Shown: positions 10,661 through 47,553 of the stretch, piece after piece
Position numbering within the stretch: position 1 is the stretch's first letter
Layout: every line of letters starts with the position of its first letter
Assembly (NCBI RefSeq): GCF_965277065.1
Contig: NZ_CBDIBT010000012.1
Span: 132 to 64,131, forward strand
Length of the DNA: 64,000 nt
Reading direction: 5' to 3'
Source of the DNA: Mycobacterium sp.
GTDB taxonomy: Bacteria > Actinomycetota > Actinomycetes > Mycobacteriales > Mycobacteriaceae
The notes under the pieces: generated by a model
What the model saw: only the letters and a program-made list of their open reading frames with translations
Told to the model about the DNA's origin: nothing
Database searches by the model: none
Position numbers and translations under genes: made by a program

Positions 10661-11305
10661 GTGGCGACCAACGTCTACAACGGCACCGCTGCCGATCTGG
10701 AACCCATCACCAAAGGAAGCACGCTCTATCGGATTCGCGCTGCCGGCGCTACTTACGCGGCAAACTCGTTCAATCCCAGACCCAAGCCGCTGCACGACAC
10801 CGCCCAAGGTCGTTTCGAGCCCACCGACCCCGTGCTGGGTGGCTATCTCTATGTAGCGCCAACACTTCTCGGCGCCGTCGCCGAAGGCATATTGCGCAAC
10901 CAACCCATTCCCGCATCCCGCCTGGTGCCGAGATTGTGGTTGTCCAACAAGATGCTCGCGGTCCTCACCCTCAACGAAGACATTCCCGCGGCCGCTGCCT
11001 ACGGGTCACACGCCGCCAAACTGAACCTGGATTCGTCCTTCCTGTGCCGCGACTCCAGTGCCTACAGCGCCACCCGCACCGCGGGCACCGAGATCCTGCT
11101 GAATACCCCGGCTGCACGCGCGCTGGCCTACCCGTGCCGCAATTGCGAGTCCAAAGTCGCCCTGATGCTGATTGCACGCGCTGCCACGCCGGCGGTCAGT
11201 GTTCAAAGCGAAGTCGAAATCCTGAAAGATCCAGCGGCCGCTAGGCTCGTCGTTGACACCCTCGACCTCGGGTTCGGCCTCAAGTACGCCGGTCGGATGC
11301 CCTGA
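10661..11305 (+). CDS. RES-domain toxin (NAD+-targeting family)
   Basis: 214 aa. Candidate Arg (AQGRFEP), Glu (AVAEGIL) and Ser (CRNCESKVALML) blocks are in RES-like order, and it is tightly coupled to the Xre/DUF2384-like gene upstream. Confidence 0.65.
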   Translation: MATNVYNGTAADLEPITKGSTLYRIRAAGATYAANSFNPRPKPLHDTAQGRFEPTDPVLGGYLYVAPTLLGAVAEGILRNQPIPASRLVPRLWLSNKMLAVLTLNEDIPAAAAYGSHAAKLNLDSSFLCRDSSAYSATRTAGTEILLNTPAARALAYPCRNCESKVALMLIARAATPAVSVQSEVEILKDPAAARLVVDTLDLGFGLKYAGRMP

Positions 11306-27846: not shown

Positions 27847-29947
27847 ATGTCCCCAACCCCGCGGGTGATCTCAACATTCAAACATGCTGCAACGATCCAC
27901 GCGCTTGCGTACAGCCCCGACGGGCAACGGTTGGCCACCGCCAGCGACGACCGCTCCGTGCAGATCCGCGCGGTAGCCGACGGGTCGCTAGTGAGCACCC
28001 TGACCGCTGATGTTCCGCTCCAAGGCGTCTCTTTCTCACCGAACGGCACGCTCGCCGCGGCGACAGCTTCTCGGGCTGGCCCTCCGAAGGTGATCGTGTT
28101 CGATCCGGCCACAGGCAACCCGCTGTGGAATCTGGTACCGGTGACGAGCTGTGTTTTCAGCCCGGACAGCACCCGCGTTGTGCTCTCCGACGAGTCGATG
28201 GTGCGGGCCTGTGATGCGCGTAAGGGCGCCCAGCAGTGGCTTTTTCACGCGTCGGCCGGCCAGTTGCTCCAAGGCGCTGCGTGGAGTTTCGACGGACAGA
28301 CGGTCGCAGTCGGTATCAGCCGTACCAGCAACGTAATCGGTGGCGAGGCCGGCGGGCAGGTCGTACTGCTGGACGCGTCCTCGGGCTCTGTGGTTCGCAG
28401 TGTGGAACGGCAGACCAGTGTCCGTGCGGTCTCGTTTGCCGGTGATCACAATCTGCTCGCGTTCGGCGCCGACGACGTAGTTGGTATCGTGGGTCTGGCC
28501 ACCGACGCGGTGCGGGTACTCCCCAATCCGGCAGTGCCGCAGCATGGGAACCTTCGAGACGTCTTGTCGATTCGGTTCAGTCCGGACAACACGTTGATTG
28601 GCGTGGTCAGTGCCAGCCACCCGTTCGGAATGAACTTGGGGATCGAAGTGCTCAATGCCGAGTCTCTCGAATTGCTCCAAGGGATTTCTAGTTTCTCGTC
28701 GGTATTCGATTTCAGCCCCGATTCCCGCTGGGCCCTCAGCGTCGAACCCACGGGTTTCGATCCGAACCCTCTCAACCGCGGGCGCGCCCTCGATGTGCGG
28801 GTTTGGGATGTGGCTACCGGGGTTGAGCAGTTCACACTGTTGCAGGACACCGCCGATGGCATCGGGGCTGCGGTGTTTGGGCCCACCGGTGCGACGGCGG
28901 CGGTGGCCGCCGGTAATACCGCCACGGTGTTGCAGTTGCCGGTGCGGGAGCGTTTCAGGTTGCTCCACGATGGGCCGGTTCGTGCGGTGGCGTTTAGCCC
29001 CGATGGGTCCCAGGTGTTGACCGGTAGCCGCGATAGCACCGCGCGGGTGTTCGATGCGGCCGCGGGTAGCCAGCTGGTCACGTTCGCTCATGACGGCCCG
29101 GTCAACTCGGCGGTGTGGATTCCTGGTCAGCCGTCGGTGGCGACGGCCAGTGCTGATCACTTTGCGCGGATCTTCGATGTGGGCACCCCGGCGGTTGCGC
29201 GGGTGCGGGTGCCGCACGACGGGGCGGTCAACGTGGTGTGCGTCAGCGCCGATGGACGATGGTTGGCTAGTGGCGGGGATGACGGCATTGTCCATTTGAC
29301 CGAGGTGGCCAGCGGCAACCTGCTGCACAGTTTCTCTCATGCGCAGCAGGTGCATGCGGTGGCCTTCGGGACGCTGCCGGATGGGCGGGTGCTGTTGGCC
29401 ACCGGCGATGAGGGATTCGCACACCTGTTCGACACTGCCAGCGGGGCGACGTTGCAGGACCTTGTCAATGCTCAGGGGAAGGCGGTGGGCGCGGTGGCGT
29501 CCTAGCGCTGATGGCACATGGTTGGCCACCGGCTGTGCTGACGGGTCGGTGCGGGTGTTCAGCACCGATAGCGGCGCGCTGGTGTCGCATCAGGAAAGTA
29601 CAACGACGCCGGTGCGTGCGGTGGTGTTCAGCCCTGACGGTGCGCAGCTGGCGATCGGCTGGGGCGACGGCACGGCGCGAATTGTGGCCAGCGGTACGGG
29701 GACTGAGACGCAGCGGTTGAAAGGTCACACCGGGGCGGTGGAGGCGTTAGCGTACCGGGCGGGCACGCTGCTGGTGACTGGAAGTGCCGATCACACTGCG
29801 CAGGCGTTTGACGCCAGCACCGGTGCGCCGTTGGCCAGCTACAGTCACGACGGCGCGGTAAATGCCGTCAGTGTCGATCACCTAGGGTTGATGCTGGCCA
29901 CCGCAAGCGAGGACAAAACGGCCCGCCTCTATGCACTACCCAAGTGA
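27847..29947 (+). pseudogene. WD40-repeat protein, paralog 1, with a 1-nt insertion frameshift
   Basis: Repeats of ..SPDG..LAT(A/G)S.D.TAR(I/V)FD.. The frame breaks at 29500..29503 (GCGTCCTAGCGCTGATGGC, against GCGTTTAGTGCTGATGGC in paralog 2). The C-terminal third continues in ORF 29339..29947 from codon AGC at 29504 (SADGTWLATGCADG..). Confidence 0.75.
28791..29342 (+). repeat. near-identical ~550-nt block shared by the two WD40 genes (copy 1)
   Basis: It aligns without gaps to 31042..31593 (constant offset 2251). By eye there are only about ten mismatches, whereas flanking paralogous sequence is clearly more diverged. Confidence 0.85.
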
Positions 29948-30118
29948 CCGGTGGCGCGCCCGGTGGCGTTAGCCCTGACGGGTGCGCTGCCGGCCACAGG
30001 TGCCGGTCACGAACACCACCCGAAACCTTGAAGCGTCGTCACATTGAATGCCGACAGAAACACCCACCGAGCGCCAGCCGAGCTGGCCATAATCCGCACC
30101 GAAGAGTGAGCCAGACAG

Positions 30119-32188
30119 ATGTCCCCTGCCCCGCGGGTGATCGCCAAATTCAGCCACGCTGCACGTATCAATACGCTTGCTTACAGCCCCGACGGGCGAC
30201 GGCTGGCCACCGCCAGCGACGATCACACCGTGCAGATCCGCGCGGTAGCCGACGGGTCGTTGGTGAGCACGCTGACCGCCAATCAACCGCTCCAACACGT
30301 TTCATTCGCGCCCAACGGCAGTCTTGTTGCCGCGACCGGTTACCGACCTCAAACTCACGTCTCTGAGCTGCCCTCCGGTAGCGTTTTTACGTTCGATCCC
30401 GCGACCGGTACCCAGTCGTGGAAAGTGGAGGGACACTTTGACACACGATGCACCTTCAGTGCTGACGGCACACGCGCTGTACTTTCCAACAGTGCCGCAG
30501 TGGAGTCACGCGACCCGCACACCGGCACCCAGCAGTGGGTGTTCGCCGTACCGGCCAACCAAACATTCACTGACGCCTCGTTGAGCGGGGATGCCGCCAC
30601 CGTCGCGGTCGCCACCCGCGGCAACACACAAGCGGCGGGCAATCAAATCCTGCTGCTCGAGGCCGCCTCAGGCGCGGTACGCCGAAACGTCGAACGGTCG
30701 GCCCCCGTGCGTGCGGTGTCGTTTTCCGGTGATCGTGGTTTGCTGGCGTTCGGCACCGACGACGAAATTGGCATCGTGGACCTAGCCACCAACGCGGTGC
30801 GCGTACTTCCGAATCCGACGGTGCCGCAGCACGGCAACCTCCGCGAAGTCTTATCGATACGGTTCAGTCCAGACGATACGTTGATCGGTGTAGTCAGCGT
30901 CACCATCAACGGAATCAACCCGACGATCGACGTGCTCAGAGCCGACACCTTCGCCCTGCTTAACGAATTACCCAACGGATTCTCAGGGGTGTTCGGGTTC
31001 AGCCCCGATTCCCGCTGGGCCCTCAGCGCAGAAAACACTACCGATGCCCGGGTTTGGGATGTGGCTACCGGGGTTGAGCAGTTCACACTGTTGCAGGACA
31101 CCGCCGATGGCATCGGGGCTGCGGTGTTTGGGCCCACCGGTGCGACGGCGGCGGTGGCCGCCGGTAATACCGCCACGGTGTTGCAGTTGCCGGTGCGGGA
31201 GCGGTTCAGGTTGCTCCACGATGGGCCGGTTCGTGCGGTGGCGTTTAGCCCCGATGGGTCCCAGGTGTTGACCGGTAGCCGCGATAGCACCGCGCGGGTG
31301 TTCGATGCGGCCGCGGGTAGCCAGCTGGTCACGTTCGCTCATGACGGCCCGGTCAACTCGGCGGTGTGGATTCCTGGTCAGCCGTCGGTGGCGACGGCCA
31401 GTGCTGATCACTTTGCGCGGATCTTCGATGTGGGCACCCCGGCGGTTGCGCGGGTGCGGGTGCCGCATGACGGGGCGGTCAACGTGGTGTGCGTCGACGC
31501 CGATGGGCAATCGTTGGCTAGTGGCGGGGATGACGGCATTGTGCATTTGACCGAGGTGGCCAGCGGCAACCTGCTGCACAGTTTCTCTCATGCTGGGCCG
31601 GTGCGGGCGGCGGTGTTCAGTCCTGATGGCACCCGGTTGGCTAGCGGCGGGGATGACGGCATTGTGTTGTTGACCGAGGTGGCCAGTGGCAACCTGCTGC
31701 GCAGCTTCTCTCATGGTCCTAACAACGCGGTGCGTGCGGTGGCGTTTAGTGCTGATGGCACGCGGCTGGCCACCGGCTGTGAGGGCGGGTCGGCGCGGGT
31801 GTTCGGCACCGATAGCGACACGCCGGTGTGGCGGGTCGACGGTCTTGGGCCGGTGCGTGCGGTGGCATTCAGCCCCGACGGTGCTCAGCTGGCGCTGGGC
31901 AGCGCCGACTCCACGGCCCTGATTGTGGCGAGCGATTCGGGGCATGAGCTGCACCGGTTGTTAGGTCACAACGGGGCGGTGGAGGCGTTAGCGTATCGGG
32001 CGGGCACGCTGCTGGTGACCGGTAGTGCCGATCACACTGCGCGGGTGTTCGACACCAGCACGGGTGCGCCGTTGGCCAGCTACGGCCACGACGGCGCCGT
32101 GCATGCCGTCAGTGTCGATCACGCGGGGTTGATGCTGGCCACCGCGAGCGAGGACAAAACGGCCCGCCTCTATGCACTACCCGAATGA
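30119..32188 (+). CDS. WD40-repeat protein, paralog 2 (intact, ~14 repeats, no other domain)
   Basis: 689 aa that is WD40-like from the first residues (..YSPDGRRLATASDDHTVQIRAV..). It contains an internal tandem duplication (LASGGDDGIVHLTEVASGNLLHSFSH / LASGGDDGIVLLTEVASGNLLRSFSH). Confidence 0.85.
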   Translation: MSPAPRVIAKFSHAARINTLAYSPDGRRLATASDDHTVQIRAVADGSLVSTLTANQPLQHVSFAPNGSLVAATGYRPQTHVSELPSGSVFTFDPATGTQSWKVEGHFDTRCTFSADGTRAVLSNSAAVESRDPHTGTQQWVFAVPANQTFTDASLSGDAATVAVATRGNTQAAGNQILLLEAASGAVRRNVERSAPVRAVSFSGDRGLLAFGTDDEIGIVDLATNAVRVLPNPTVPQHGNLREVLSIRFSPDDTLIGVVSVTINGINPTIDVLRADTFALLNELPNGFSGVFGFSPDSRWALSAENTTDARVWDVATGVEQFTLLQDTADGIGAAVFGPTGATAAVAAGNTATVLQLPVRERFRLLHDGPVRAVAFSPDGSQVLTGSRDSTARVFDAAAGSQLVTFAHDGPVNSAVWIPGQPSVATASADHFARIFDVGTPAVARVRVPHDGAVNVVCVDADGQSLASGGDDGIVHLTEVASGNLLHSFSHAGPVRAAVFSPDGTRLASGGDDGIVLLTEVASGNLLRSFSHGPNNAVRAVAFSADGTRLATGCEGGSARVFGTDSDTPVWRVDGLGPVRAVAFSPDGAQLALGSADSTALIVASDSGHELHRLLGHNGAVEALAYRAGTLLVTGSADHTARVFDTSTGAPLASYGHDGAVHAVSVDHAGLMLATASEDKTARLYALPE
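31042..31593 (+). repeat. near-identical ~550-nt block shared by the two WD40 genes (copy 2)
   Basis: Counterpart of 28791..29342. Confidence 0.85.
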
Positions 32189-36199: not shown

Positions 36200-37510
36200 A
36201 TGCCTGTCAAGTACATCGATGTCACGGCAAAAAGCGACCTTTTTGTTCCGGCGACGAGAGCCTTCGGTGACATTGCCATCGTCGGGAAGGGCGTAGGCGC
36301 GTCGGGTGCGTCGGGGCCGCACGAGTTCACCGACCCGGCCTCACCCATCGCCGCCTACCTCACCCGCTCGGTCGCGGACGCAGTCATAAAAAGCGGTAGC
36401 ACCACGGTCACCTCCGCGGCGAACGGTTTCGCTACCTCAGACGTCGGCCGTGCGGTAACCGGTACGGGGATCCTGAGCGGCACGACCATCGTCAAGGTCA
36501 CCAACGCTGGGAGCGTCGAACTGAGCGCCGCGTCGACGGGCGCCGGGACAGGCGTCGCCTTAAGTGGCCTCCCGGGCGAGCACAGCGACCTCGGCGACGC
36601 GATCGCGATGGCGTTCCGACAGTCCCCACCGCCGACGAGGGTCTGGGGTGTTCAGGTGGACGCCACCACGCCCGATTGGGACACGGCATTGACCGCAGTC
36701 GCGAAGCTCGACGTCCAGATCGTGGCACTGGCCAACACACCGCTGAACAGCTCCACCGCGCAGACAGTGGACAAGCTCGCCACCCACGTCAGTACGGTGT
36801 CCAACACCGGAGGCGACGGCAAGGAGCGGATCGGCGTCGCGATGCTCGACTCGTCCTTGACCGCCTCCGCGCAGGCCGCCCTCAACACCGGCACCGTGGC
36901 GAACGAACGCATGTTCCTGATCGCCCACCGGTCCAGTGAGGACGTGGCCGCTGCGGCGGCGGGTGTGATCGCTGGTGTCCAACCGCACATCTCGGTGCTC
37001 CTCAAGCCGATCAACATCAACCAGGACCCTTCTCGCGGTTTCTCCGACAGCGAAATCGACACCCTCGACAGCGCTTTCATCAACTGGGTCACCAGTCCCG
37101 TCCTGATCCCCGGGAGCGGCGTCTATCTCGGAGAGGGATACACCGCCAACCCGGGTCAGGGGAACAAAAAATATATCGACGTCGTGCGCACCCTGGACGA
37201 CATCAACTTCCGCGTGAAGGCCGAGCTCATTCAGGCCATGGGCAACTTGCGCGTAAGCCGTTCCGGGTTGCGGGCCATCGAAACGCTGGTTGAAGCGGTC
37301 CTCTCGCCGCTGATGGCGCAGGCGGTGATAGAGGATTATTCCGTTTTCATCCGTCTGCTGGTCTTGCTTAGTAAGGACCCGGCCTCATTGAGCGCGGCCG
37401 AACTGCAAGAGATCCAGGACGCCCAGGCCTCCCGGAAAATTGATATGGCCATCAACGTCACTTATGCCGGCGCAATCCACCGGCTCCATATCGATCTGGT
37501 CTTCAAGTAG
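36200..37510 (+). CDS. contractile tail sheath protein
   Basis: 436 aa. The C-terminal half (..FINWVTSPVLIPGSGVYLGEGYT..KKYIDVVRTLDDINFRVKAEL..GLRAIETLVEAVLSPL..VTYAGAIHRLHIDLVFK) parallels the conserved sheath C-terminal domain. It is followed directly by a tube-sized gene. Confidence 0.75.
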   Translation: MPVKYIDVTAKSDLFVPATRAFGDIAIVGKGVGASGASGPHEFTDPASPIAAYLTRSVADAVIKSGSTTVTSAANGFATSDVGRAVTGTGILSGTTIVKVTNAGSVELSAASTGAGTGVALSGLPGEHSDLGDAIAMAFRQSPPPTRVWGVQVDATTPDWDTALTAVAKLDVQIVALANTPLNSSTAQTVDKLATHVSTVSNTGGDGKERIGVAMLDSSLTASAQAALNTGTVANERMFLIAHRSSEDVAAAAAGVIAGVQPHISVLLKPININQDPSRGFSDSEIDTLDSAFINWVTSPVLIPGSGVYLGEGYTANPGQGNKKYIDVVRTLDDINFRVKAELIQAMGNLRVSRSGLRAIETLVEAVLSPLMAQAVIEDYSVFIRLLVLLSKDPASLSAAELQEIQDAQASRKIDMAINVTYAGAIHRLHIDLVFK

Positions 37511-37527: not shown

Positions 37528-37938
37528 ATGCCATCAACCGCACCCGACACCCTCAAGTGGGATACCCGGCTCACAGTCATGGTCGGCACCACGGTGGTGA
37601 CGCCCATCGAAAATTTCAACCCCACCTTCACCACGCCCGTCCAGACCCTGCACTCGCTGGAGGCCGACAACGTCGCCCACATCGTTCAGCCCCAAACCTT
37701 CACCTTCACCATGCAGGTCAAGGCGATCGGCCCGGTGGTAGCGACCCTGACCGACATCGCCCTCAAACACACGTCTTTTAGTGTGGCAATATCCGAGGCC
37801 AGCGGCACCGACTGGACCTTCCAAAAAGTCGCATTCCGCGACTGCTACATCACCTCGGTGAACAACACCATCCAGCCTGACCAATCTCCCAACGCGAGCT
37901 TCAATTGCATCTGCCTTGACATGGAAACCACGGTCTGA
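37528..37938 (+). CDS. tail tube protein (candidate)
   Basis: 136 aa, beta-rich, immediately downstream of the sheath gene. Size and position fit an inner-tube subunit. I do not see a diagnostic motif. Confidence 0.55.
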   Translation: MPSTAPDTLKWDTRLTVMVGTTVVTPIENFNPTFTTPVQTLHSLEADNVAHIVQPQTFTFTMQVKAIGPVVATLTDIALKHTSFSVAISEASGTDWTFQKVAFRDCYITSVNNTIQPDQSPNASFNCICLDMETTV

Positions 37939-37942
37939 CGTC

Positions 37943-38125
37943 ATGGCCGAGGACGAGAACCAGGAGCCCACGCCTGGGTCGGAGGCGGTGCTCGTTACCG
38001 CTGAAGGCCGGGACGTGCATTACCACTTCCCCGTTCACGTGGTCGTTGTCGGAGAACACAGCGACGACGTCACAAGCGAAATCGAGGCAAGCATCATGTC
38101 CAGCCTGTATTCGGCCCTCACCTAA
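37943..38125 (+). CDS. 60-aa protein carrying the shared N-terminal-type module
   Basis: ATG at 37943. ..RDVHYHFPVHVVVVGEHSDDVTSEIEASIMSSLYSALT. This module recurs at the N-termini of the next two giant ORFs. Confidence 0.5.
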   Translation: MAEDENQEPTPGSEAVLVTAEGRDVHYHFPVHVVVVGEHSDDVTSEIEASIMSSLYSALT

Positions 38126-38151
38126 GACGACCGTGCAGCGGTGCGAGTCTG

Positions 38152-40728
38152 ATGGCCGCCGTTCACTGCCACTTCCCGATCACAGTCCACGTCACCGGGC
38201 ACCTTGGCGCGGAGGCGCTTTACCAGCTCGCTGCCGAGGTGGAGCGGGCGGTGGCTGAGCGCATCGCGAGCGCGGAAACAGAGCTCTACCGGCACCCGGG
38301 TGCTCGCGCCGGCACGGGCGTCGTGCCAGGGAACCAGCGGGGTGAGGCGAGCACGGGCCTTGCGGGCGCCGACGAGATTGCCCGCCGCCCGGCCGGAACG
38401 AGGAAGCCAGTTGCCAGCGCAGGTGCGGCGGCGGCGCCGGGTCAGCGATTCCTGATCCATGTGACCGTCAACGAACCGGTCAGCGCCGCAGAGTTTTGTT
38501 TCCTGGCGGTCATGCAAGGCCTCGGCCTCGAACGGGACGAGGCCAAGCGGGTGATCGATTCGGGCACTCTTCGCTGCTACGGCTGGGCATCGACCTATGG
38601 CGTCGGACCCGAATGGGTTAACCATCCCATTCCCTTCTGGGTCGAATCCAGGCTCGCTCACCGCGCCGCGGAGACGCCGGTAGGCAGCATCTCCGACGTG
38701 GCTCTGGAACCCGGCGAACTTGCCGAAATCAGCGCCGAGGCCGATCAGCGATTCTGGGCGAAGATCGGCGAGTATCGGACTCTTTCGAAAACCGATCCGC
38801 GCGACGCCGCCTACCGTGAACTCTGGAAATCGGAGTACGACGCCCTACTGCGGGAGCGGCATCCGATCGCCACGGGGGGTGAGCCCGATGACGATCCGTT
38901 CTCTGCGGACCTGCGGCGCTTTGTCACAATCGCGGGCTTACCCACGGCGGCCCCACATCAGGAAATCGACCCTGAGCAGATGTACTGGATGCAGAAGGTG
39001 CAAGAGATTCTCGCCGGTATCAGCGAACGCGACTGGAAGCGACTGCAGCGCATCGGTCTGCCCCAGAGTGACTGGCAGGGGCTGTCTGCGTGGGTTTCCC
39101 GGTTCGTGGAGGATCAGCGCGCATTGGACCACGCGATCGAAAAGGTCGGACGAATGGACGAATTCGGCGGTCTCGACTCCGCGTACGAATCAATTCGCGG
39201 AGAAGGTCGAGGATCACGCGATGACGTTGAAGGGGAGGCATACGCTCGCTCCTCGGAACTGGACGAAGCCGCCGGAGCGTTTCGCGACAGGTTCCAGGTC
39301 CGAGCAGTTGAGATAACGCTCGAGATGCTGCGATATGCCGAGGTTGCGTTGGAGACGGTACGCGAACGAATGCACATTCGGCGGGAGCGGGAGTCGCTTT
39401 TCTCGGCGTTAGCCAACAACGATTCCGAGGTTTTGGCACGCGATCCCGCATTGAGCTATCCCGACATTCTCGAATCGGCGCATAACTCGACAACCCCGGA
39501 CGACCTCGGCGAGAGGTTGCGGGGCAGCATCTACCAGCAGATCGAGCGGATAAAGTTTGTCCGCGAGAACCTTGATGAAAAACCGAACGTCGTCTTCAAC
39601 TTCGACGTCGTGGTTGCAAACACGTTGGTCGAGCTTGGGCTCGGCGAATCGATCCACGCCGAAATCATCAAGAGAGGGTGGGGCTCGTCGGACGGCAGTT
39701 CTCTCTTTGAGAAGCTGCTCGAGCTGGGGAAGATGCTGCTGATTTTCGTACCCGTGATCGGTGAAATCTACGGCGCGATCGAAGGTTTTCAGGGATTCCG
39801 CGAGGCCGTGAAGGACTACGGTGCCCAGGATGATGCGTTTGAGCTCGGCCTGCGAACGACTGAGCCGAGCAAGGTGGGCATCCTATGGGGAACCGTCGGT
39901 CTCGTTGCGGGCGGTGTGCCGATTGCGCACTCAATCTCGAGTACTGCGAGGGGTTTTGGACAGTTCGAAACCGGTGTGGCCGGCGAAGCGACCACACTGG
40001 GGCGGGCCGAGACGGGCGCGGCGGCCGCCCAAACTGGTGAAGTCGTAGCACCGCAAACGGACGAAGTTCCAACACCCGGGGCGCGAGACGCAACAGAGGG
40101 GATAGAGGGCGGCGACAGCGCCGAAATACCGACTGCGGCTATCGATACGCAGCCTCCGCCAGACAAGCTCTTGCTGTTCCATGGCACAGATCAACCGGGC
40201 TTTACCGAGGGCAGAATCAACGTCGCTCATGCGGGGGGCGAGCACCAAGACCTGAGCCAGGGCTTCTATCTCACGGAGGACAGGGAGCTGGCGGAGGAAT
40301 ACGCCCACATGCGGAGCAAGCAACGCAGCGTGATTCCGAACGTCGACGAGCGTGGCCTCCACGGGATGACCTACACGCACGGTTGGGACGTCGCACTCGA
40401 GGACCTTGGAGACGTCGTGGACATCCGGCGCGGAGGGCAGGATCGCGCAGCTTGGGACGCATTTTTAGAGGAGCCGCCGTTCAGTGTTCCCATCCCGGGA
40501 ATGCCAACCCGACGAATCTATCTCCAGAAGCTCGGCGCCGACCGGCGCGGCATCGTGTTCGAGCAATTCCTGGGGTCGGTAGGCAAGTCCGACGCGGATG
40601 TGATTGTCGCGCCCCTCGGGGACGACGTTTTTATCGGTATCACAACGGGACAGGAATCGACACAGGTCGTCATCCGCTCACAGAAGGCGGCCGACGTACT
40701 CAACGCGATCATTAGGACTGCACAATGA
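38152..40728 (+). CDS. 858-aa multidomain protein at the tape-measure/cargo position, with a PARP/DUF3990-like C-terminal domain
   Basis: N-terminal module MAAVHCHFPITVHVTGHLGAEALYQLAAEVERAV. Helical middle. Two hydrophobic stretches (MLLIFVPVIGEIYGAI, VGILWGTVGLVAGGVPIA). C-terminal ..LLLFHGTDQPGF..DLSQGFYLTEDRELAEEYA..ADVIVAPLGDDVF..QVVIRSQKAADVL.., resembling H-Y-E type ART/DUF3990 layouts. Confidence 0.7.
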   Translation: MAAVHCHFPITVHVTGHLGAEALYQLAAEVERAVAERIASAETELYRHPGARAGTGVVPGNQRGEASTGLAGADEIARRPAGTRKPVASAGAAAAPGQRFLIHVTVNEPVSAAEFCFLAVMQGLGLERDEAKRVIDSGTLRCYGWASTYGVGPEWVNHPIPFWVESRLAHRAAETPVGSISDVALEPGELAEISAEADQRFWAKIGEYRTLSKTDPRDAAYRELWKSEYDALLRERHPIATGGEPDDDPFSADLRRFVTIAGLPTAAPHQEIDPEQMYWMQKVQEILAGISERDWKRLQRIGLPQSDWQGLSAWVSRFVEDQRALDHAIEKVGRMDEFGGLDSAYESIRGEGRGSRDDVEGEAYARSSELDEAAGAFRDRFQVRAVEITLEMLRYAEVALETVRERMHIRRERESLFSALANNDSEVLARDPALSYPDILESAHNSTTPDDLGERLRGSIYQQIERIKFVRENLDEKPNVVFNFDVVVANTLVELGLGESIHAEIIKRGWGSSDGSSLFEKLLELGKMLLIFVPVIGEIYGAIEGFQGFREAVKDYGAQDDAFELGLRTTEPSKVGILWGTVGLVAGGVPIAHSISSTARGFGQFETGVAGEATTLGRAETGAAAAQTGEVVAPQTDEVPTPGARDATEGIEGGDSAEIPTAAIDTQPPPDKLLLFHGTDQPGFTEGRINVAHAGGEHQDLSQGFYLTEDRELAEEYAHMRSKQRSVIPNVDERGLHGMTYTHGWDVALEDLGDVVDIRRGGQDRAAWDAFLEEPPFSVPIPGMPTRRIYLQKLGADRRGIVFEQFLGSVGKSDADVIVAPLGDDVFIGITTGQESTQVVIRSQKAADVLNAIIRTAQ

Positions 40729-40928
40729 TCGGCGAGCCGGCAGAACTAACAACATCGGATCTTCGGTCCGCCGCGCCCCGCGTCTGCCGAAGCGTTCCCC
40801 AAATAGGCAAGTAGTTGAGTGGTTCGACCGTCAGTGGCGTAGCTCGCTGGCGATTCCTTCTCGGCCGTAACACATTTCACCGTCACCAGGTTGTCGATTA
40901 GATCGCCGCTTGACGCACGCCGGCGGCT

Positions 40929-40957
40929 GCGTGTGGTCCGCTCAGCGGACCACACGC
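40929..40957. terminator. perfect 13-bp stem / 3-nt loop hairpin
   Basis: GCGTGTGGTCCGC-TCA-GCGGACCACACGC, with every pair Watson-Crick. It lies ~200 nt after the stop of the 858-aa ORF, inside the 655-nt gap. There is no clear U-tract, as is common for actinobacterial terminators. Confidence 0.4.
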
Positions 40958-41383
40958 TTGTCCGAACCGGCCCGATCGACGCGAAATGGTATACGCCGAG
41001 CTTCGGAGGAGGATTCATGGCCACGCGATGCGTATACGTAGCTCGGTGGCGGGCCGGGCGCCCGGCTGGTCATTGTCGCGCTTCGACCAACCGGGCCCCG
41101 TGTGGATTTGGCGGAGCGGGTGACAACGCTCCCGGTTGGCGTCGACGACCGTTGCCTCGTTTGTGCGAACGCACTTGTGGGCCGGCCCGGTGACGGGCAA
41201 TTGGCCCCTGGTCGAAGTGACGGACGGCGGAGACCAAATTCACCCAGGATGGCGTGGCGGGCGCACTCCTCGCAGCAATAGGTCGTACCCCTGAATGCAG
41301 GATCACCAGCGCATGAGCGACACAACTCCACGCGTGCGACTCCCGCCTTGCGTGCAGGAGGCAGCGGGCAAGGGGGCGGGCGG

Positions 41384-43906
41384 ATGGCGGTGACGATTCA
41401 CCCCCCACACGGCGTGACCTTCGAGGGCCCCGCCTCTGAAGAAGACCGCGGCCGGATCGAAACGGCGCTTCAGCATGCCGTGCGGCGGGCTCTTGCGAAG
41501 TCAGCGGCGCGGCAACTCCAAGATCTGACGGTTCGCCGGTCCGGCGAGATCGGCGAATGGCCCGACCTCGCCTGGGTCGGACCTGCCGATCGCGGCTACT
41601 TCGAACCCAGCGATGACGATCGGGGGGAGCTCACGGAGACCGGACTGCTGGAAAACATCCCGGCCACCGCGGCACAGCGGACCCAACACCTGATCGCAGC
41701 CGGCCAAATGGGTGCGGTCGCTGAGCCGTTCAAGGTCACTCAGGTCGGGCCCGCGGTCGGAGCCCAGGTGGTTCCCTGGTGGGAGGATCGGGGCGAGCCC
41801 ACCGGGATCGAACAGCCAGAACACCCCACGCCGACCACCCAGGCTGAGGGTATCCGGGTTGGCCCGAGCGGCCTGGAAGCCACGCTGATCGCCGTCACGC
41901 CGGGCAACCGCAACGTGTACCTGAGTTCACCGCATCACGCCGTCTCCAGCTCGTTCAGCACCGCCTACCAGTTCGGCCTAAACCTGTTCAAGGCCTCGTC
42001 TTTCGCCATCCTGCAGGGTCCGGGGCAAGGCAACGCGACCCAGTATTTGACGCTCGGAACCGAGCCCAGCGTCGACTCCGCCGACCTGGGCAACGCCGCC
42101 GTGCATGGATGGGAAGGCGCGCAGAAAGAGACCGCCGAGGGTGACGTCATCGACGTGCCCTCGCTCCTGCTGCCGTCAGATAGCTACGGAATCGGCAGCT
42201 ACACACTGCGCGGCTTGGTGACCGAGGACCGTCGCATCGTCTACCCCGACGCGCCGCCTACTCGGCAGTCGCTGGACGACGTCGAGACAGCGGCTCGACA
42301 GGGCGTGCAAATCCCCGCTGCCACTGACGCTCGCGAGCTGCTCTTCAACGACGTCGACAGGCTCGTGGAGCAATACTTCGCCGGCGACGACACTAGCCTC
42401 GGGAAAGCCGCCGATTACTTGAGCCGCTTCGACGCCAACGTCTTCGCGCTGGTTCCGTGGGACCATAAGGTCAAATACCTCGAGGTTTTGCTCGCAGCCT
42501 GGACGTGGCAGATGCGAAAGCAGGCCGTCGTCGCGATCTTCACGTCGCTGCGCAGCGACAGCGAGATCGACGCCGTCATCGACGAGCTGAAGCGGGCGGG
42601 ACGCTACGACCAGTTCATCAAGGACGTCGACTACGGACTTTACGACCTTCTTGTCACCCTGGGCGAATCATTCGCCCAGGACCGCAACGCAGTAGTTACC
42701 TTCGAGGGCCTCATCGAGCTGCTTGACAGCATGGGGATGGTCAGCGAGGCCCCGCCCGGTTACCTGACCCAGATCGTCGCGGAGCCTGGGGCCAAGCCGG
42801 TGCCTCCATCCGAGATGCTGGTCGAGGCCCATGATGCGGCGATGGGTTTGATCCGCGTTGGGGCGGAGCTGGGAGCGACCCTGCAGAGTATTTTCGATGA
42901 TCCCGACACGGTGATGCTGGGCATCGACGCAATGGCTGAGCTCATCGTCAACATTTGGCTGGCCAACGCCGGCTATCAGGCGGCCGCCGTGCAGATCGCC
43001 CGGACGCTGGCCAGGGTTGACAACAAAACTCGGGCTGCTCTCCGCGGTGCGGATCGACTTGGCGTGGACGAGTACGTGCTCGGGCGAATCAGGTGGCGCC
43101 TGCTCTGGGAGGTCGCCTCGCTGTTCGCTGAGGCCGACGCGGTCGTGGAGCCTGGGGTAGCCCTGACCCTGCCTAAAGCGGGACGCACCCACGCCCGGTC
43201 GGGCGAAGCGGTGGACGCCGAGGCCCAGGCCGATAGCGCGGCCCGACTGGCGGCGCTGCTCAACGATCGGAGTGCGACCTTCGGGAGCGTCGAAGAGACG
43301 GCCGAGTTGCTCTCCCACCTTCCCGAAGGCGACGTGCAGCGGCTGGGTCAGCTGCTGGAGTTCCACGGTCCCGAGCTGCACGCCGCCCTCGAGGACGCCG
43401 CGGCGAAAACTGAGGTGCTCAAGACGCTGGCCGACAAGAGCGGCGGGCTCAGCGAGGAATCTCTCGCGCTGTTCCAGCGTCTGGCGGGCCCGGACGGACT
43501 GGAGGTCGAGGCGTCCCGTCGCGTGGTCGCCGCCCTCCCCGCCGGCGAGGTCGCGAGGTTTGCCGCCACCCTGCAGCGCATCCCGCTGCACCGGCTAACA
43601 CCCGAAACGCGCGCTCCCATGCTCGAGCTGCTGGCGGCCAGCGCTCCGCGCATGGACACCTTGACTCAGGTCGGTGCGGAGACGTTCGCCGCCATCTATC
43701 GGCGGGTCGGCGGGAAGGCCGAGGCCGTGGACACTTATCTGCGAGCCATCCACGAGCTTCAGAAGCGTTTGACCGGTCCGGCGAAAGCCGCCGATCTGCG
43801 TCGCCTTCTCGACGCCCTGGAACGGGACGAGCCGGGTGCCTGGCTGACCGTGGATAAAGAGCGCCACCCACCGCCCTCTTCAACGACCTCGCTCGACGGA
43901 GCCTGA
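41384..43906 (+). CDS. 840-aa largely helical protein (tape-measure or cargo candidate)
   Basis: ATG at 41384. The N-terminus MAVTIHPPHGVTFEGPASEEDRGRIETALQHAVRRAL is related to the module of the two preceding ORFs. The C-terminal ~400 aa are Ala/Leu/Glu/Arg-rich and look helical. No catalytic motif recognised. Confidence 0.65.
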   Translation: MAVTIHPPHGVTFEGPASEEDRGRIETALQHAVRRALAKSAARQLQDLTVRRSGEIGEWPDLAWVGPADRGYFEPSDDDRGELTETGLLENIPATAAQRTQHLIAAGQMGAVAEPFKVTQVGPAVGAQVVPWWEDRGEPTGIEQPEHPTPTTQAEGIRVGPSGLEATLIAVTPGNRNVYLSSPHHAVSSSFSTAYQFGLNLFKASSFAILQGPGQGNATQYLTLGTEPSVDSADLGNAAVHGWEGAQKETAEGDVIDVPSLLLPSDSYGIGSYTLRGLVTEDRRIVYPDAPPTRQSLDDVETAARQGVQIPAATDARELLFNDVDRLVEQYFAGDDTSLGKAADYLSRFDANVFALVPWDHKVKYLEVLLAAWTWQMRKQAVVAIFTSLRSDSEIDAVIDELKRAGRYDQFIKDVDYGLYDLLVTLGESFAQDRNAVVTFEGLIELLDSMGMVSEAPPGYLTQIVAEPGAKPVPPSEMLVEAHDAAMGLIRVGAELGATLQSIFDDPDTVMLGIDAMAELIVNIWLANAGYQAAAVQIARTLARVDNKTRAALRGADRLGVDEYVLGRIRWRLLWEVASLFAEADAVVEPGVALTLPKAGRTHARSGEAVDAEAQADSAARLAALLNDRSATFGSVEETAELLSHLPEGDVQRLGQLLEFHGPELHAALEDAAAKTEVLKTLADKSGGLSEESLALFQRLAGPDGLEVEASRRVVAALPAGEVARFAATLQRIPLHRLTPETRAPMLELLAASAPRMDTLTQVGAETFAAIYRRVGGKAEAVDTYLRAIHELQKRLTGPAKAADLRRLLDALERDEPGAWLTVDKERHPPPSSTTSLDGA

Positions 43907-44011
43907 GCAGATGCCCTCGAACAGCCAGCGCCACGCTTGCCTCGCCATCCCCCCCAAGCCGGCGCGGCCCACCGCGAGCGGGGCCCTGGCGGTTTCGATC
44001 GGAGGTTTCCG

Positions 44012-44521
44012 ATGCCTGCTGGGGTGAACGTCCCGGTCCTGATTGGAGTGGTACCGCTCTTCACCGTCACCTCGATGACCCTCAACGAGGGTTACAAAGT
44101 GGCTCGGATCGCGGGCAGCACGCTGGCCCAACTGGTATCTCCCACCACCAAGACCATCGCCATCGAAGCAGTGCTATTGGGCTCTACCCGGCTGATCGTC
44201 AAGAAGGGGCTCGAGGCGATGGCCCTGACCTCGCGTGCCCTCGCTGCCGCGGCCGCGCCGGGCATGAAGCTGGCGGGTCTGCCGGTTGTCTCCGGGTTTA
44301 CCATCAGCGTTGACATGCAGATCACCAGCATGCGGTTCACTCAGAGCAATCAGAAGCGCGACGCGATCGACGTCAGCATCACCCTGGAGTACGTTCCTCG
44401 CTCCAGCCTGAGCGCGATCGTTGGGGAGGCCTTGGACATGGCGCTGGCCGGGGCCACCGCGGCCATCCCCAGCAGCAGCAACATGGTTTCCCTCAAGCGG
44501 CAGCTGGGCGGTGGAGTGTGA
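44012..44521 (+). CDS. tube-initiator / baseplate-proximal tube-like protein (candidate)
   Basis: GGAGG, then ATG at 44012. 169 aa, beta-rich (..FTISVDMQITSMRFTQSNQKRDAIDVSITLEYVP..). Its position directly upstream of the spike module corresponds to Afp7/gp48-54-like proteins. No LysM motif seen. Confidence 0.4.
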   Translation: MPAGVNVPVLIGVVPLFTVTSMTLNEGYKVARIAGSTLAQLVSPTTKTIAIEAVLLGSTRLIVKKGLEAMALTSRALAAAAAPGMKLAGLPVVSGFTISVDMQITSMRFTQSNQKRDAIDVSITLEYVPRSSLSAIVGEALDMALAGATAAIPSSSNMVSLKRQLGGGV

Positions 44522-44940
44522 GTGCGGATCTCCAGTTCTTTCAGCTACCCGTAGTCCCCGATGAGGGCCTGCCGCAGGTGTTCACCTGCCCGGTGGGCGC
44601 GGGAAGCTACGATTTCGCCCTCTACGCGAATCTCACGGTCCCCGACGACGACCCACCAGAGACCATGTACGACCTGTCCACATACGACCCGTCCACCTTC
44701 AAGGCCCCCGCCGAGCCGCTCTCCCCGGTCGGCTACCTGGTGCTGAGGGTGACGGCTCCGTCGCCGGCCGGCCCGCAGGTCATCCTGCTGCGCAAATTGG
44801 TGCCCGAACCCGGCTTAATCCACTACGGCGGCGCGCTGGCAGTCAAGGTTGTCCAGGCGAAGGTCGCGCGAGGCAACCTCAACGGGTTCGGGCACTACGG
44901 CTCGCAGATCACGATCGGGGTGGCGCAGCGATGGGCGTGA
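44518..44940 (+). CDS. hypothetical baseplate-associated protein
   Basis: 140 aa. The GTG start overlaps the preceding stop (GTGA), and its 3' end overlaps the spike gene by 10 nt. No motif recognised. Confidence 0.5.
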   Translation: MSADLQFFQLPVVPDEGLPQVFTCPVGAGSYDFALYANLTVPDDDPPETMYDLSTYDPSTFKAPAEPLSPVGYLVLRVTAPSPAGPQVILLRKLVPEPGLIHYGGALAVKVVQAKVARGNLNGFGHYGSQITIGVAQRWA

Positions 44941-46706
44941 TCCTGTGGTACCAGGTCGACTTCACCGAGCTGAAGACCAAGATCTCCAATGACGTCTACT
45001 CCGGCGACTACCTCGACGACGCGGAGATCAAGGTCGAATACGACATCGGCACGCCGGCCAGCTTCAACATCGAATTCAAGAACCTGCCGCTGGATGTGAA
45101 CAGGGCCATCGCGGACAAGCTGGCGAACTCTGGCACCGGGTCGCCGTCCGGCGTCGAAGTGGAGATCAAGCTGGGCTACCTTGATGATCCCGGAAGCCAG
45201 AAGCGCGTGATCAAGGGCCGTGTCCACAGCATGAAGGGCGGCACCCGGTTCCCCCCGTTGGGCCTGAAGTTGCTTGGCTACGAAGAAGCGGCCTATGCAC
45301 TGCTAACGAAATATGACCCCGACACAAAGCTGGCCCTGATCGCTGAGCCGGCCGCGACGCCGACCGGCGTGGTCGAACAGATCCTGGGCCTGGTAAACCT
45401 GAAGCCGGTCGGCGAGGTGACGCCCACGACGTGGTCCTTCGGTACAGCCGCGGAAGACGGGACACCCGCAAAGCCTTACAACCTCGAGGCACCGAATCTC
45501 TTTGCCCTGCTGAAGAACTTCGCTGACTATCTCGATGCCGAGATCCTCGTGCAAGATGGGGGCGCCCAATTCGGTGTCGCCATCGTCGAGCCGGCGAACA
45601 CGAGTATGCCGACAATTCCACCCAATCCGTCGGTTGTGCTATCACTGCTGACCGCCGAGAGTGCGCTCATTCGCACCAAGGACCTGGAAAGTGCGCGGCT
45701 GGCTGAGTTCAAGCCGTACGTTGTCGGCAGCCCCGCCAAGCAGCGGGTGATTACCGAGCCGGCCGATCAGACCGTGGTCGACTGCTTCGATTTCACCGTC
45801 CTTGGCTCGGCCACATTCCGGGCCGGGCAGCCGGTGATCGCCAGCGTCGACGGCTACGACAACCCGTTCAAGGCCTTCCGGATCTTGAAGGTCACCCACA
45901 CGTTCTCTCCCGTCAGGGGCTATGTCTGCACTGGGCGGGCAGCGACCTTCGACCCCGGTGGTAATAACCGAGCGGCAACCGAAAAGGCGCGGGTGGCGAC
46001 CGCGCCGGCCGTGGCGGATCTGATCGTCAAGACGATCAAGGAGGCCCAGGCAACCCTTCCCTCAGTGGATGTGGGGCGGGTGAAGACGGCGAATCCCGTC
46101 GACCGGGTGGCCGACCTCTACTTCGGCCAGGAGCGGAACCCCGGCGTGTCCACGCCCTGCGTCGACCTGGACGTGAAGGTGAGCAAGTCGGTCCTGTCCA
46201 GCAAACCCCTCGCCGCCCCCTTCGCCTGGCACAAGGTCGGCCTCACGGTGCCCGTATATGAAGGCATGCGGGCGCTCCTCAACCAGGGCCAGAGTTCGCG
46301 CAACAACGCAGTTGTCGCCGGCTTCCTCTGGGCCAACAATGCACCGAAGATGGATCGGCCCAAGTCGAACGACGGCGACTGGTGGCTTTGCCTGCCGACC
46401 GAGGTGTCCGGCGACCCTAAGCTGCCAACTGGTAAGGGGGTCAATGACCTGGTCTCCGCGAAGGGGCTCCGGGTGATCGAGGCGGTCGGACTCAAGGTGG
46501 TGGTGGGCAAGGACAGCTGCTCAGCCGTGGGGGAGCGACCCACCGAAGGAGACGCCGATGTCCTGCTGATCAGCCACTCCTCGGGCACCACCATTCAGAT
46601 CGACGCCCAGGGCAACGTCGCGGTGCAGGGTAAAGGGACGAGCGTCAGCCTTGCGTGCGGCGGGGCGACCCTGACGGTGGGGAGCGGGAAGGTGTCGATC
46701 TCATGA
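44931..46706 (+). CDS. baseplate hub/spike protein (gpD/VgrG-like)
   Basis: 591 aa. The N-terminal pattern (..AEIKVEYDIGTPASFNIEFKNLP..VEVEIKLGYLDDPGSQKRVIKGRVHSM..LKLLGYEEA) is typical of phage late-control-D/VgrG. The C-terminus has a beta-helix-like repeat (..TTIQIDAQGNVAVQGKGTSVSLACGGATLTVGSGKVSIS). Confidence 0.7.
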   Translation: MGVILWYQVDFTELKTKISNDVYSGDYLDDAEIKVEYDIGTPASFNIEFKNLPLDVNRAIADKLANSGTGSPSGVEVEIKLGYLDDPGSQKRVIKGRVHSMKGGTRFPPLGLKLLGYEEAAYALLTKYDPDTKLALIAEPAATPTGVVEQILGLVNLKPVGEVTPTTWSFGTAAEDGTPAKPYNLEAPNLFALLKNFADYLDAEILVQDGGAQFGVAIVEPANTSMPTIPPNPSVVLSLLTAESALIRTKDLESARLAEFKPYVVGSPAKQRVITEPADQTVVDCFDFTVLGSATFRAGQPVIASVDGYDNPFKAFRILKVTHTFSPVRGYVCTGRAATFDPGGNNRAATEKARVATAPAVADLIVKTIKEAQATLPSVDVGRVKTANPVDRVADLYFGQERNPGVSTPCVDLDVKVSKSVLSSKPLAAPFAWHKVGLTVPVYEGMRALLNQGQSSRNNAVVAGFLWANNAPKMDRPKSNDGDWWLCLPTEVSGDPKLPTGKGVNDLVSAKGLRVIEAVGLKVVVGKDSCSAVGERPTEGDADVLLISHSSGTTIQIDAQGNVAVQGKGTSVSLACGGATLTVGSGKVSIS

Positions 46707-47077
46707 GCTTCGTGCTGGTCGAGGGCGCCATCATCGGATGCAGCCACGGAGGGCAGCTCACACTCGGCTCCGGGGACGCACGCCTCAGCGTCGACGGCAA
46801 CGGCGCGATCACCTTCGGCATGGAGGCGGGCCTCAGTTTCGCTGCCGCCCACCCCCCGTGCACAAACAAGACCACCACCACCCCGCCGCCCGCCCCCCAG
46901 CCGGCCCCCTGTGTGACCTCGGCCGCCACCGCCGGCCAATCCACCAAACTGTCGGTGGGCAATCTGCCGGTGCTGCTCGACTCGGCCAATGGACCCACCG
47001 TGCCCGCGCTACTTCCGGCCGCCCCCGGCACCTGGAACGTCGTCAGCGCCGGCCAGGCCAAACTGGAGGCGATGTAA
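46703..47077 (+). CDS. PAAR-like/DUF4280-like spike-tip protein
   Basis: ATGA overlap with the spike gene. 124 aa: MSFVLVEGAIIGCSHGGQLTL..HPPCTNK..APCVTSA..LSVGNLPVLL..GTWNVVSAGQ, which matches the Cys spacing I associate with DUF4280. Confidence 0.55.
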   Translation: MSFVLVEGAIIGCSHGGQLTLGSGDARLSVDGNGAITFGMEAGLSFAAAHPPCTNKTTTTPPPAPQPAPCVTSAATAGQSTKLSVGNLPVLLDSANGPTVPALLPAAPGTWNVVSAGQAKLEAM

Positions 47078-47553
47078 TGGCCACTCCCGGCAATAGCGGC
47101 GCCCCCAGCCTGGGCCTGAGCTTGATGCTCAACGTCGGGGACCTGGTTTTCGACCCGGGAACAGGCGACCTTGACATCGTGCGGGAACAGCACGCTTTGT
47201 CCCAGGCCCTGCAGCTGGCGGTCCAGACGCAAGTCGGCTCCGACCGGATCAACGTCGGCTTCGGTTTCGACCAGCTCTCAGTAGGTGCGTACGCCTACGA
47301 CATTCACACCCGCAAGGAATACGTCAAGATGCAGCTGGTCAAGGCGGTCACCGGCGACCGCCGCGTCCGCGACGTCCGAGAAATCTTTTTCCGGGACGAC
47401 CCTCGCTACTTCGAACTGCACTCCATCGACGCCCTTTCTCAGCAGCAGATCATCGCCCGGGCCCGGGCCAGCCGCGAATACACCGTCTATGTAGTCATCG
47501 ACACCATCAGCAACGACACGCTGACCATCGAAGCCGGGGCCACCCTTGGCTGA
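47077..47553 (+). CDS. baseplate wedge protein, gp25/GPW-like
   Basis: TAATG overlap with the preceding gene. 158 aa with ..DIVREQHALSQALQLAVQTQVGSDRINVGFGFD..YVKMQLVKAVTGDRRVRDVREI.., resembling the GPW/gp25 fold family. Confidence 0.6.
   Translation: MATPGNSGAPSLGLSLMLNVGDLVFDPGTGDLDIVREQHALSQALQLAVQTQVGSDRINVGFGFDQLSVGAYAYDIHTRKEYVKMQLVKAVTGDRRVRDVREIFFRDDPRYFELHSIDALSQQQIIARARASREYTVYVVIDTISNDTLTIEAGATLG

Follow-up and report, generated by a model that had tools for sequence, protein, structure and literature searches.

We describe three consecutive genes that lie directly downstream of a tube-like gene in a stretch of 64,000 nucleotides from Mycobacterium sp. (RefSeq assembly GCF_965277065.1, contig NZ_CBDIBT010000012.1, positions 132 to 64,131 of the forward strand), hereafter the window. 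Their products, termed S (60 residues), C (858 residues) and T (840 residues), carry a homologous module of about 37 residues, placed at the end of S and at the start of C and of T. The genes belong to a series of contractile-tail genes on the + strand at ~36.2-54.8 kb, which we read as a domesticated, divergent actinobacterial contractile injection system (CIS). Judged from sequence, the leader that the module forms in C and T probably marks proteins for packing inside the tube. On balance we take the module to be the address tag of this lineage, docking proteins of the tube lumen at the start of assembly, with S in a role like that of Sle2 from Streptomyces lividans, as an adaptor, site-filler or chaperone. 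C itself appears to be a modular polymorphic effector built from leader, chassis, hydrophobic hairpin and a toxin domain assigned to the ADP-ribosyltransferase (ART) superfamily.

The shared module

A short, conserved and probably structured element, the module comprises a strand, h-x-h-H-[F/P]-P-x-x-V-x-h-x-G, followed by an amphipathic helix. In S (37943..38125, + strand) it occupies residues 24-60 (38012..38122, +; DVHYHFPVHVVVVGEHSDDVTSEIEASIMSSLYSALT), in C (38152..40728, +) residues 3-39 with the helix continuing to about residue 48 (38158..38268, +; AVHCHFPITVHVTGHLGAEALYQLAAEVERAVAERIA) and in T (41384..43906, +, 840 residues counted from the ATG) residues 2-38 (41387..41497, +; AVTIHPPHGVTFEGPASEEDRGRIETALQHAVRRALA). 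A hidden Markov model (HMM) of the module matches the three copies with E values of 2e-17, 6e-15 and 5e-15, respectively.

A preliminary description of this DNA had lined up the three segments by eye and proposed a common element of about 35 residues. The proposal is upheld. Direct pairwise comparison relates S to C (BLASTP E 8e-5) and gives no significant match of T to either S or C. Once each open reading frame (ORF) is replaced by the alignment of its orthologues (7 S, 4 C and 15 T sequences) all three relationships become significant, hhalign returning P values of 6e-7 for S and C (probability 92%), 3e-5 for S and T (72%) and 1e-4 for C and T (58%). The three pairs align in a single register, which runs through H-x-P, four residues, V-x-h-x-G and the helix. 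Two controls are clean. With shuffled columns none of 300 replicates reaches the observed score for any pair (z ~7-13), and when the T alignment, which is largely helical, is cut into windows of 60 columns the S and C profiles score 24.4 and 23.2 on the N-terminal window, better than on any of 57 others, and windows that do not overlap it reach at most 12.9. Beyond the leader C and T show no relationship.

We ran the 37-column HMM on all stop-to-stop ORFs, taken in six frames, from the window and from 26 loci that carry related genes. It matches S, C and T ORFs only, exactly three of them in the window, and within this set of sequences the module occurs solely in genes directly downstream of the tube gene. 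No Pfam model, even at E <= 10, and no NCBIfam model matches the module.

Residues His6, Pro8, Phe13 and Gly15 of the T module are invariant in 13 homologues, and the histidine, proline and glycine are invariant or nearly so across the S, C and T families. The hydrophobic residues of the leader strand are conserved as well. Codon differences within the module are mostly third-position or synonymous, indicating that the constraint acts on the protein, and in view of the predominance of such changes we rejected a regulatory or RNA element as the origin of the shared leader. A suspected likeness to the 'DFSxVRVHTD...' segment of DUF4157 was also pursued and dismissed, comparison with 18 DUF4157 segments giving hhalign P values of 0.14-0.77. 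Pfam finds no eCIS_core domain in S, C or T, nor DUF4157 in the three related loci annotated with Pfam (L001-L003).

Downstream of the leader many T and C proteins, in both of the clades described below, have a second short motif, Y-x-[VL]-P-S-Y-x-x-G(G), separated from it by about 30-45 residues. It is found at residues ~75-95 in the T family (P0007-P0017), at residues 70-85 of L017:10744-12555 and 72-85 of L009:8316-10001, and at residues 70-80 and 68-78 of the proteins P0048 and P0038.

Related loci and the cargo slot

Full-length homologues of T number 14, all metagenomic. Their contigs, together with a scan of metagenomes, provided loci L001-L012 from soil. The tube protein served as the marker for locating relatives, and a search with its alignment provided 12 loci in Streptomyces and Kitasatospora genomes, S. 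venezuelae ATCC 10712 (CP192597, about 378-398 kb) included. Tube proteins share 69-77% identity with that of the window in the metagenomic loci and 65-69% in the 12 Streptomyces/Kitasatospora loci.

Gene order is fixed in 21 loci of the two clades: sheath, tube, S, an optional C, T, a protein of 169-194 residues and baseplate. Every protein encoded between the tube and baseplate genes has the module at its N-terminus, except that S has it at the C-terminus. The modules fall into three types, denoted S-, C- and T-type, and conservation of each type extends across clades.

Unrelated proteins occupy the C slot of the window, L003, L006/L007 and L009, whereas L002, L004, L005 and L011 have nothing in it. 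The occupant in L003 is an Ntox5 protein (E 1e-47), and in most loci of the Streptomyces clade it is a conserved protein of ~600 residues. The closest contig retains a remnant of the cargo gene (L001:1-916, compared with 40600-41500 of the window), in which a piece of the central region of C ('...RTLSKTDPRDAA...') is followed within ~200 nt by the frameshifted 3' end of the toxin domain. Cargo genes therefore decay in place.

All-against-all BLASTP of seven cargo proteins confines the alignments to residues ~1-60, at 32-66% identity, with the exception of one orthologous pair and of P0048, which has the toxin domain in common too. The leader of C matches the six other cargo leaders with 35-58% identity (E 1e-5 to 1e-13) and nothing aligns past about residue 85. 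A similar situation holds for T, since the 38-residue leader is the sole part shared by the T proteins of the two clades despite tube identity of 65-69%. In four loci the C gene is reduced to little more than its leader, as an ORF of 66-89 residues (L013:10628-10846, L014:10629-10829, L016:6752-6994 and L019:10680-10946), and in L015:4406-8119 one protein of 1237 residues begins with two leaders in tandem, of the C-type and the T-type. Leaders persist while bodies are lost or exchanged, and it is therefore the module and not the body that is kept by selection. The earlier suggestion that a shared leader on otherwise unrelated proteins could be a loading or docking element fits in that the leader behaves like a tag, being the sole common part of unrelated cargo and T proteins; a loading function would be the natural reading of these comparisons.

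Might the similarity be no more than a historical trace? Cargo genes could have arisen by recombination into the 5' end of T and S could be a gene fragment, leaving a module without function. Cargo genes do sit immediately 5' to T, where loss or decay is frequent: the remnant in L001 and the ORFs reduced to a leader are examples. Against this, the module has been kept with synonymous turnover whilst the rest of T and of C diverged beyond detection, S remains full-length in two clades, and the histidine, proline and glycine hardly vary. We regard such an origin as very improbable.

Architecture of C

Residues 1-48 of C form the leader and 49-98 a linker rich in Ala, Gly and Pro. The segment from about residue 99 to 633 (38446..40050, +), which we call the chassis, is common to C and orphan effectors of the DUF4157/eCIS_core type. 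It shares 44-56% BLASTP identity with the metagenomic proteins P0002-P0004 over residues 76/100-626/633. These proteins carry eCIS_core (DUF4157) exactly where C has its leader, and they end in other toxins, for example Ntox1. Two of them (L025:2577-6434 and L026:4390-8133) are orphans located outside CIS clusters, one among metabolic genes and the other beside a resolvase-like gene.

Two hydrophobic segments had been noticed in C at the outset. A hydropathy scan places them within the chassis, at residues ~518-546 and 575-595 (nt 39703-39936), where they form a hydrophobic hairpin that relatives also possess. C had been described as either a tape-measure-like protein bearing an effector or a cargo toxin. 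The second description stands, whilst the tape-measure position belongs to T. Neither C nor T matches an ordinary phage tape-measure family in Pfam, PHROG or NCBIfam.

The C-terminal domain of C

The toxin module spans residues ~669-858 (40156..40725, +) and is predicted to adopt an ART-superfamily fold distantly related to DUF3990. An exhaustive search recovered 104 representative homologues, 25 of them below 1e-30, and in most the domain is C-terminal in proteins of 400-3000 residues. When 46 homologues were scanned, 20 gave weak matches to DUF3990 (E <= 1e-3, best 2.7e-6) and 13 contained eCIS_core; others carry PT-HINT, WXG100 or CdiA_C. Leaders take the place of these domains in P0048 (C-type) and P0038 (T-type).

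Pfam places DUF3990 in its ART clan (PMC7955679), and the domain is also known as a toxin tip of Rhs proteins (PMC4524185). The C-terminus of C matches its model (PF13151) with E 3e-5, the score of 24.1 bits being below the cut-off of 32.2, and the match covers positions 3-51 of 152. We read the toxin domain as a distinct sister family to DUF3990. A profile of the family finds 45 matches among Protein Data Bank (PDB) sequences (E <= 10, best E 0.004), and 44 of these are ARTs of the DT, ExoA, PARP or Tpt1 kind. The alignment runs through H-G-T and G-F-Y-X10-Y, and the ART matches span only the first ~80 residues.

AlphaFold2 (AF2) supplied with the family alignment gives a model with a mean confidence (pLDDT) of 91, as compared to 38 from the single sequence. 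The model has a divergent C-terminal half and three inserted helices. Nearly all of the top 50 Foldseek matches belong to the ART superfamily, including the RES toxins NatT and VPA0770, tankyrases and PARP1, and these matches are weak (E >= 0.025, template-modelling (TM) scores of 0.35-0.43).

The residues that would form the binding site for nicotinamide adenine dinucleotide (NAD) are well conserved. In alignments of 46 and 32 homologues His677 and Gly678 are invariant and Thr679 is nearly so; the H-G-T triplet aligns with YHGT of exotoxin A-like toxins and FHGT of PARP14, and conforms to the H-G-[ST] signature. Tyr706, in G-F-Y, is invariant and Tyr717, 11 residues further on in A-x-x-Y-A, is part of the family consensus, in agreement with a Y-X10-Y motif. 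The segment containing both tyrosines aligns with rGlYvagdpalAygYA of the exotoxin A-like protein 9g7m. No invariant glutamate, such as would complete an H-Y-E triad, is present in the homologue alignments. The preliminary description had pointed to 'EEYA' in this connection, and that sequence instead holds the second tyrosine of the NAD-binding motif. Of the likeness to H-Y-E transferases and DUF3990 that it had drawn, membership of the ART superfamily and conservation of the His and Y-X10-Y are retained, whereas the complete triad is lacking and the similarity to DUF3990 falls below threshold. Other polar residues are conserved: Asp816, just before strand 5 of the model, is at least 90% conserved in one alignment (A6) and below 90% in a second (A7), and Gln838 and Arg842 on strand 6 are invariant. 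Asp816 and Gln838/Arg842 are candidates for catalytic residues on a mapping made by strand order only.

Profile and fold comparisons both lead to ARTs, yet a conserved glutamate is missing, and a rival view has to be weighed in which the domain is not an ART-type enzyme and has kept an ART-like N-terminal half whilst being non-catalytic or differently active. The lack of an invariant glutamate, the limitation of the sequence matches to the first ~80 residues and Foldseek TM scores of ~0.4 speak for it, as does the internal position of the domain in some giant proteins, where a further 140-880 residues follow it. However, H-G-T together with G-F-Y-X10-Y, the NAD-binding signature of the DT and PARP groups, is conserved throughout the family. 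Nearly all PDB sequence matches and top fold matches are ART-superfamily enzymes, and the domain is C-terminal in polymorphic-toxin architectures with eCIS_core, PT-HINT or WXG100. That the domain is not an ART-type enzyme is in our assessment unlikely, and we call the C-terminal domain of C a new, predicted family of the ART superfamily.

The internal copies are found in proteins of 1100-2900 residues (P0040, P0052, P0056, P0057, P0062-P0068 and P0079-P0083), in which 340-880 further residues come after the domain. Its position is therefore not always that of a terminal toxin, and it may be one effector domain among several.

The C-T spacer

A spacer of 655 nt without a coding signature separates C from T (40729..41383). 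It is kept in L001 at 69-81% nucleotide identity over ~600 nt, in a contig that retains the cargo gene only as a deletion remnant. The preliminary description had advised a search for an adjacent immunity gene. None was found in the spacer, which contains no ORF with a coding GC pattern, no Pfam match and no promoter-like site. A perfect GC-rich hairpin of 13 bp (40929-40957, GCGTGTGGTCCGC-TCA-GCGGACCACACGC) occurs 200 nt past the stop codon of the cargo gene. The 71 nt around it fold with a free energy of -41 kcal/mol (z -4.2) and there is no T tract. Possible roles are those of a terminator or an attenuator separating cargo from T; a repeat element is another possibility.

The T protein

In all related loci T is in the tape-measure position, directly upstream of the baseplate genes, and T proteins have hydrophobic segments. 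We rejected the idea of an ordinary tape-measure protein, for which no family match was obtained in Pfam, PHROGs, NCBIfam or PDB sequences; the T profile retrieved nothing relevant from the last of these. Relatives of T are longer, at 958-1195 residues, because variable C-terminal domains have been added. An AHH domain terminates P0012 and the T protein of L014, and both the T of the window and its closest relative, P0006, are without a C-terminal toxin extension. An extension of ~250 residues with the pattern 'D-I-x-(x)n-GRxVDVEVK' recurs in P0007-P0010, P0013, P0014 and P0016. Its 'VDVEVK' looks like the motif of a PD-(D/E)xK nuclease, and Pfam gives no match.

Proposed function of the module

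We propose that, at the onset of assembly, the module would attach T, and C where this cargo is present, to a structural component that is itself conserved. The tube-initiator/hub complex encoded just downstream would be the likeliest such partner. The protein of 194 residues that follows T (43937..44521, +) has a weak Pfam Dit_like match (E 0.004), and a conserved orthologue of 169 residues lies directly 3' of T in every related locus. On these features it may be the tube initiator, and if so it is a candidate for the component that the module docks to. The tube would then polymerise around the docked lumen proteins and contraction would expel them. After ejection the hydrophobic hairpin may help the C-terminal, NAD-utilising toxin into the target. 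In such a scheme the module would fill the role of DUF4157/eCIS_core without homology to it, and S, consisting of little but the module, may resemble Sle2 in its action, whether by serving as an adaptor, by filling a site or by chaperoning the leaders.

The fixed gene order in 21 loci and the homology and specificity of the module support a docking tag. That the module stands in for DUF4157 is supported by the observation that eCIS_core and the leader alternate on the same chassis and on the same toxin module. A route without an ATPase is consistent with Pfam scans, which detect no AAA+ ATPase among the larger ORFs of the window or in L002 and L003. A more elaborate version is possible, and we advance it tentatively. 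The S-, C- and T-type modules would together form a hetero-oligomeric 'lumen initiator' on the hub, onto which cargo is co-assembled without an ATPase, as a convergent and non-homologous replacement of DUF4157, and the leader would be a structured loading tag of a CIS lineage that had gone unrecognised.

The properties of S invite a different explanation. Long-tailed phages encode tail chaperones between their tube and tape-measure genes, and S could be a tail assembly chaperone, the counterpart of gpG/gpGT or of gpE/E' of phage P2, with the module as a homotypic pairing surface. S would mimic and bind the N-termini of T and C, keep them soluble and hand them to the growing tube, itself staying outside the particle. 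S is small and very acidic, with 12 Asp or Glu residues against a single Lys or Arg, and the G+C content at third codon positions is 0.77. It is encoded between the tube gene and the gene in the tape-measure position, starts 4 nt past the tube stop codon, and has orthologues in all loci that cover the region. In size, acidity and location it resembles lambda gpG/gpGT and P2 gpE/E'. Nevertheless S has no homology to any chaperone family in Pfam or NCBIfam, and chaperones are not known to have a motif or sequence module in common with their tape-measure client. We consider this explanation somewhat unlikely, noting that it overlaps with the adaptor version of the docking-tag model.

Another explanation dispenses with a separate receptor. 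The module would be an oligomerisation element, the strand-helix units of S, C and T bundling on the tail axis with nothing else recognising them, so that cargo rides on T. The existence of three paralogous types of module, each conserved across clades, agrees with such an arrangement, as do the tandem C-type and T-type leaders in L015, the persistence of leader-only C-type ORFs in L013, L014, L016 and L019 and the amphipathic character of the helix, read from the sequence. Four loci (L002, L004, L005 and L011) nevertheless possess S and T only. Oligomerisation as the whole explanation seems doubtful to us; it is not exclusive of docking to the hub, with which it is compatible.

Several observations weigh against the module as a cargo tag and C as its toxin. 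In the four loci just mentioned S and T have the module and there is nothing extra to load, and the module could primarily serve the assembly of T. The hhalign probabilities that link T to S and to C are just 72% and 58%, though the P values and both controls are good. Known loading signals of eCIS (extracellular contractile injection systems) are disordered, polar and dependent on an ATPase (Afp15/Pvc15/Alg15), and the module is not of this kind. With respect to the toxin, the structural matches to ARTs are weak (E >= 0.025, TM ~0.4), the catalytic glutamate is not conserved and no immunity gene was found next to it. Finally, C has no Y-x-[VL]-P-S-Y motif, that of T in the window is degenerate ('YFEPSDDDRG'), and S of the window is without a segment of 17 residues that its relatives carry. 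The occurrence of a second motif after many leaders and the missing S motif in the window imply that the functional tag may exceed 37 residues or be composite.

The S segment was delineated by comparison with L002:9730-9963, L003:7716-7949 and L017 (about 10420-10679). It corresponds to most of the relatives' motif 'YVxxSGLAVVHxGExIV' / GLIEVHQGDRVVPAPGS. S copies of the S. venezuelae type (L013, L014) are likewise short.

The surrounding gene cluster

The window has a high G+C content, ~60-70%, and Pfam matches on flanking ORFs (a PknH-type kinase, a subtilase and an isoamylase) are compatible with an actinobacterial chromosome. The cluster starts with a sheath-like protein of 436 residues (36200..37510, +), assigned through PHROG 279 tail sheath (E 2.5e-12) and a weak match to DUF2586, whose gene is at the same place in all related loci. 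The tube-like protein of 136 residues (37528..37938, +) follows. Of all proteins of the lineage it is the best conserved, and it matches nothing in Pfam, PHROG or NCBIfam. After the 194-residue protein come proteins of 140 (44518-44940), 591 (44931-46706, a hub/spike candidate) and 271 residues, a Baseplate_J protein (E 9.5e-15) and a Laminin_G protein of 1380 residues.

A prophage was considered and rejected. Comparison by tblastn of the tube and sheath with 50,697 phage genomes gave zero relatives, as did a scan of IMG/VR with the tube alignment, and Pfam scans of the larger ORFs of the window revealed neither head genes nor a terminase. Our reading of the locus as a domesticated CIS is based on this lack of head and terminase genes and of phage relatives of the tube and sheath.

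The ORF of 271 residues (46738-47553) is represented in relatives by two separate genes of 126-129 and 157 residues, for example at L002:15695-16548, and is possibly a gene fusion. Its C-terminal half matches baseplate wedge PHROGs. The counterpart of its N-terminal half in L004, LVKGAIIQCTHGGQLQL, resembles what we take to be a spike tip of the PAAR/DUF4280-like type. Further upstream, at 27847-32188, three successive and partly overlapping ORFs on the + strand (552, 202 and 689 residues) all encode WD40 repeat proteins. An IclR-type regulator and the CIS cluster come just downstream of them. The three may represent one large WD40 gene broken by frameshifts, or a tandem family.

Comparison with known systems

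How cargo enters the tube of a CIS is still poorly understood (bioRxiv 10.64898/2026.05.27.728243), and the role of DUF4157 is unclear. In S. davawensis the tape-measure-related effector Tme has an N-terminal DUF4157, transmembrane helices and a C-terminal nuclease; its gene is just upstream of the baseplate genes, and the protein co-purifies with spike and tube initiator (PMC11126660). Sle2 of S. lividans is a small protein consisting of DUF4157 only, which binds the tube initiator and the N-terminus of the tape-measure-like effector Sle1 and so links the two (PMC13277306). Loading of AlgoCIS, PVC and Afp requires an AAA+ ATPase as well as an N-terminal sequence that is disordered (bioRxiv 10.64898/2026.05.27.728243; PMC9054023; bioRxiv 10.1101/2023.11.13.566157).

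The module is distributed like DUF4157/eCIS_core (PF13699; Cgo1/2 of AlgoCIS, Tme, Sle2), on cargo toxins, on a tape-measure-like protein and on a small stand-alone protein. However, DUF4157 is a metallopeptidase-like domain of ~80 residues, whereas the module has ~37 residues, no HExxH and no sequence relationship to it, and belongs to a CIS lineage with a sheath and tube that escape standard models. T and C resemble Tme and Sle1: the body is long and helical, there are hydrophobic or transmembrane segments, and the toxin at the C-terminus varies (AHH, Ntox5 or ART-like). T, like Tme, is encoded directly upstream of tube-initiator and spike genes, here candidate ones. They differ in that a new leader replaces DUF4157 or the DUF4157 partner and that T of the window lacks a toxin extension.

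In common with the tags of PVC (Pdp1/Pnf), Afp18 and AlgoCIS the leader is N-terminal, specific to the system and attached to otherwise unrelated cargo, which in those systems reaches the tube lumen. Those tags have no conserved residues, whereas the module has invariant His, Pro and Gly, a strand-helix organisation, and copies on T and S also. In polymorphic toxins and the type VI secretion system, markers such as PAAR, MIX, FIX, RIX and LXG/WXG100 are N-terminal domains that set the route whilst C-terminal toxins are swapped, and leader and toxin are combined here in a similar way. The delivery machine is different, and the module is much shorter and is also found on the structural protein T. 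The toxin domain has the H-G-T strand, the G-F-Y and the Y-X10-Y of DUF3990 and of DT and PARP ARTs, and departs from them in the divergent C-terminal half with invariant Gln838 and Arg842 in place of a catalytic Glu.

N-terminal loading tags, DUF4157 effectors and tape-measure-related effectors are already known. The literature that we searched contains no short conserved module common to a protein in the tape-measure position, cargo and a mini-protein in place of DUF4157 in a CIS lineage with components that current models miss. From the relationships described here, delivery routes of the DUF4157 type and of the leader type swap both effector chassis and toxin modules with each other. If our reading of the module is true, the lineage would offer a clean system for the study of loading by co-assembly and the leader would provide a rule by which effectors of this lineage can be found in genomes. 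The leader, at ~40-50 residues, would also be a candidate portable tag for engineering, in a lineage present in tractable Streptomyces, S. venezuelae ATCC 10712 among them.

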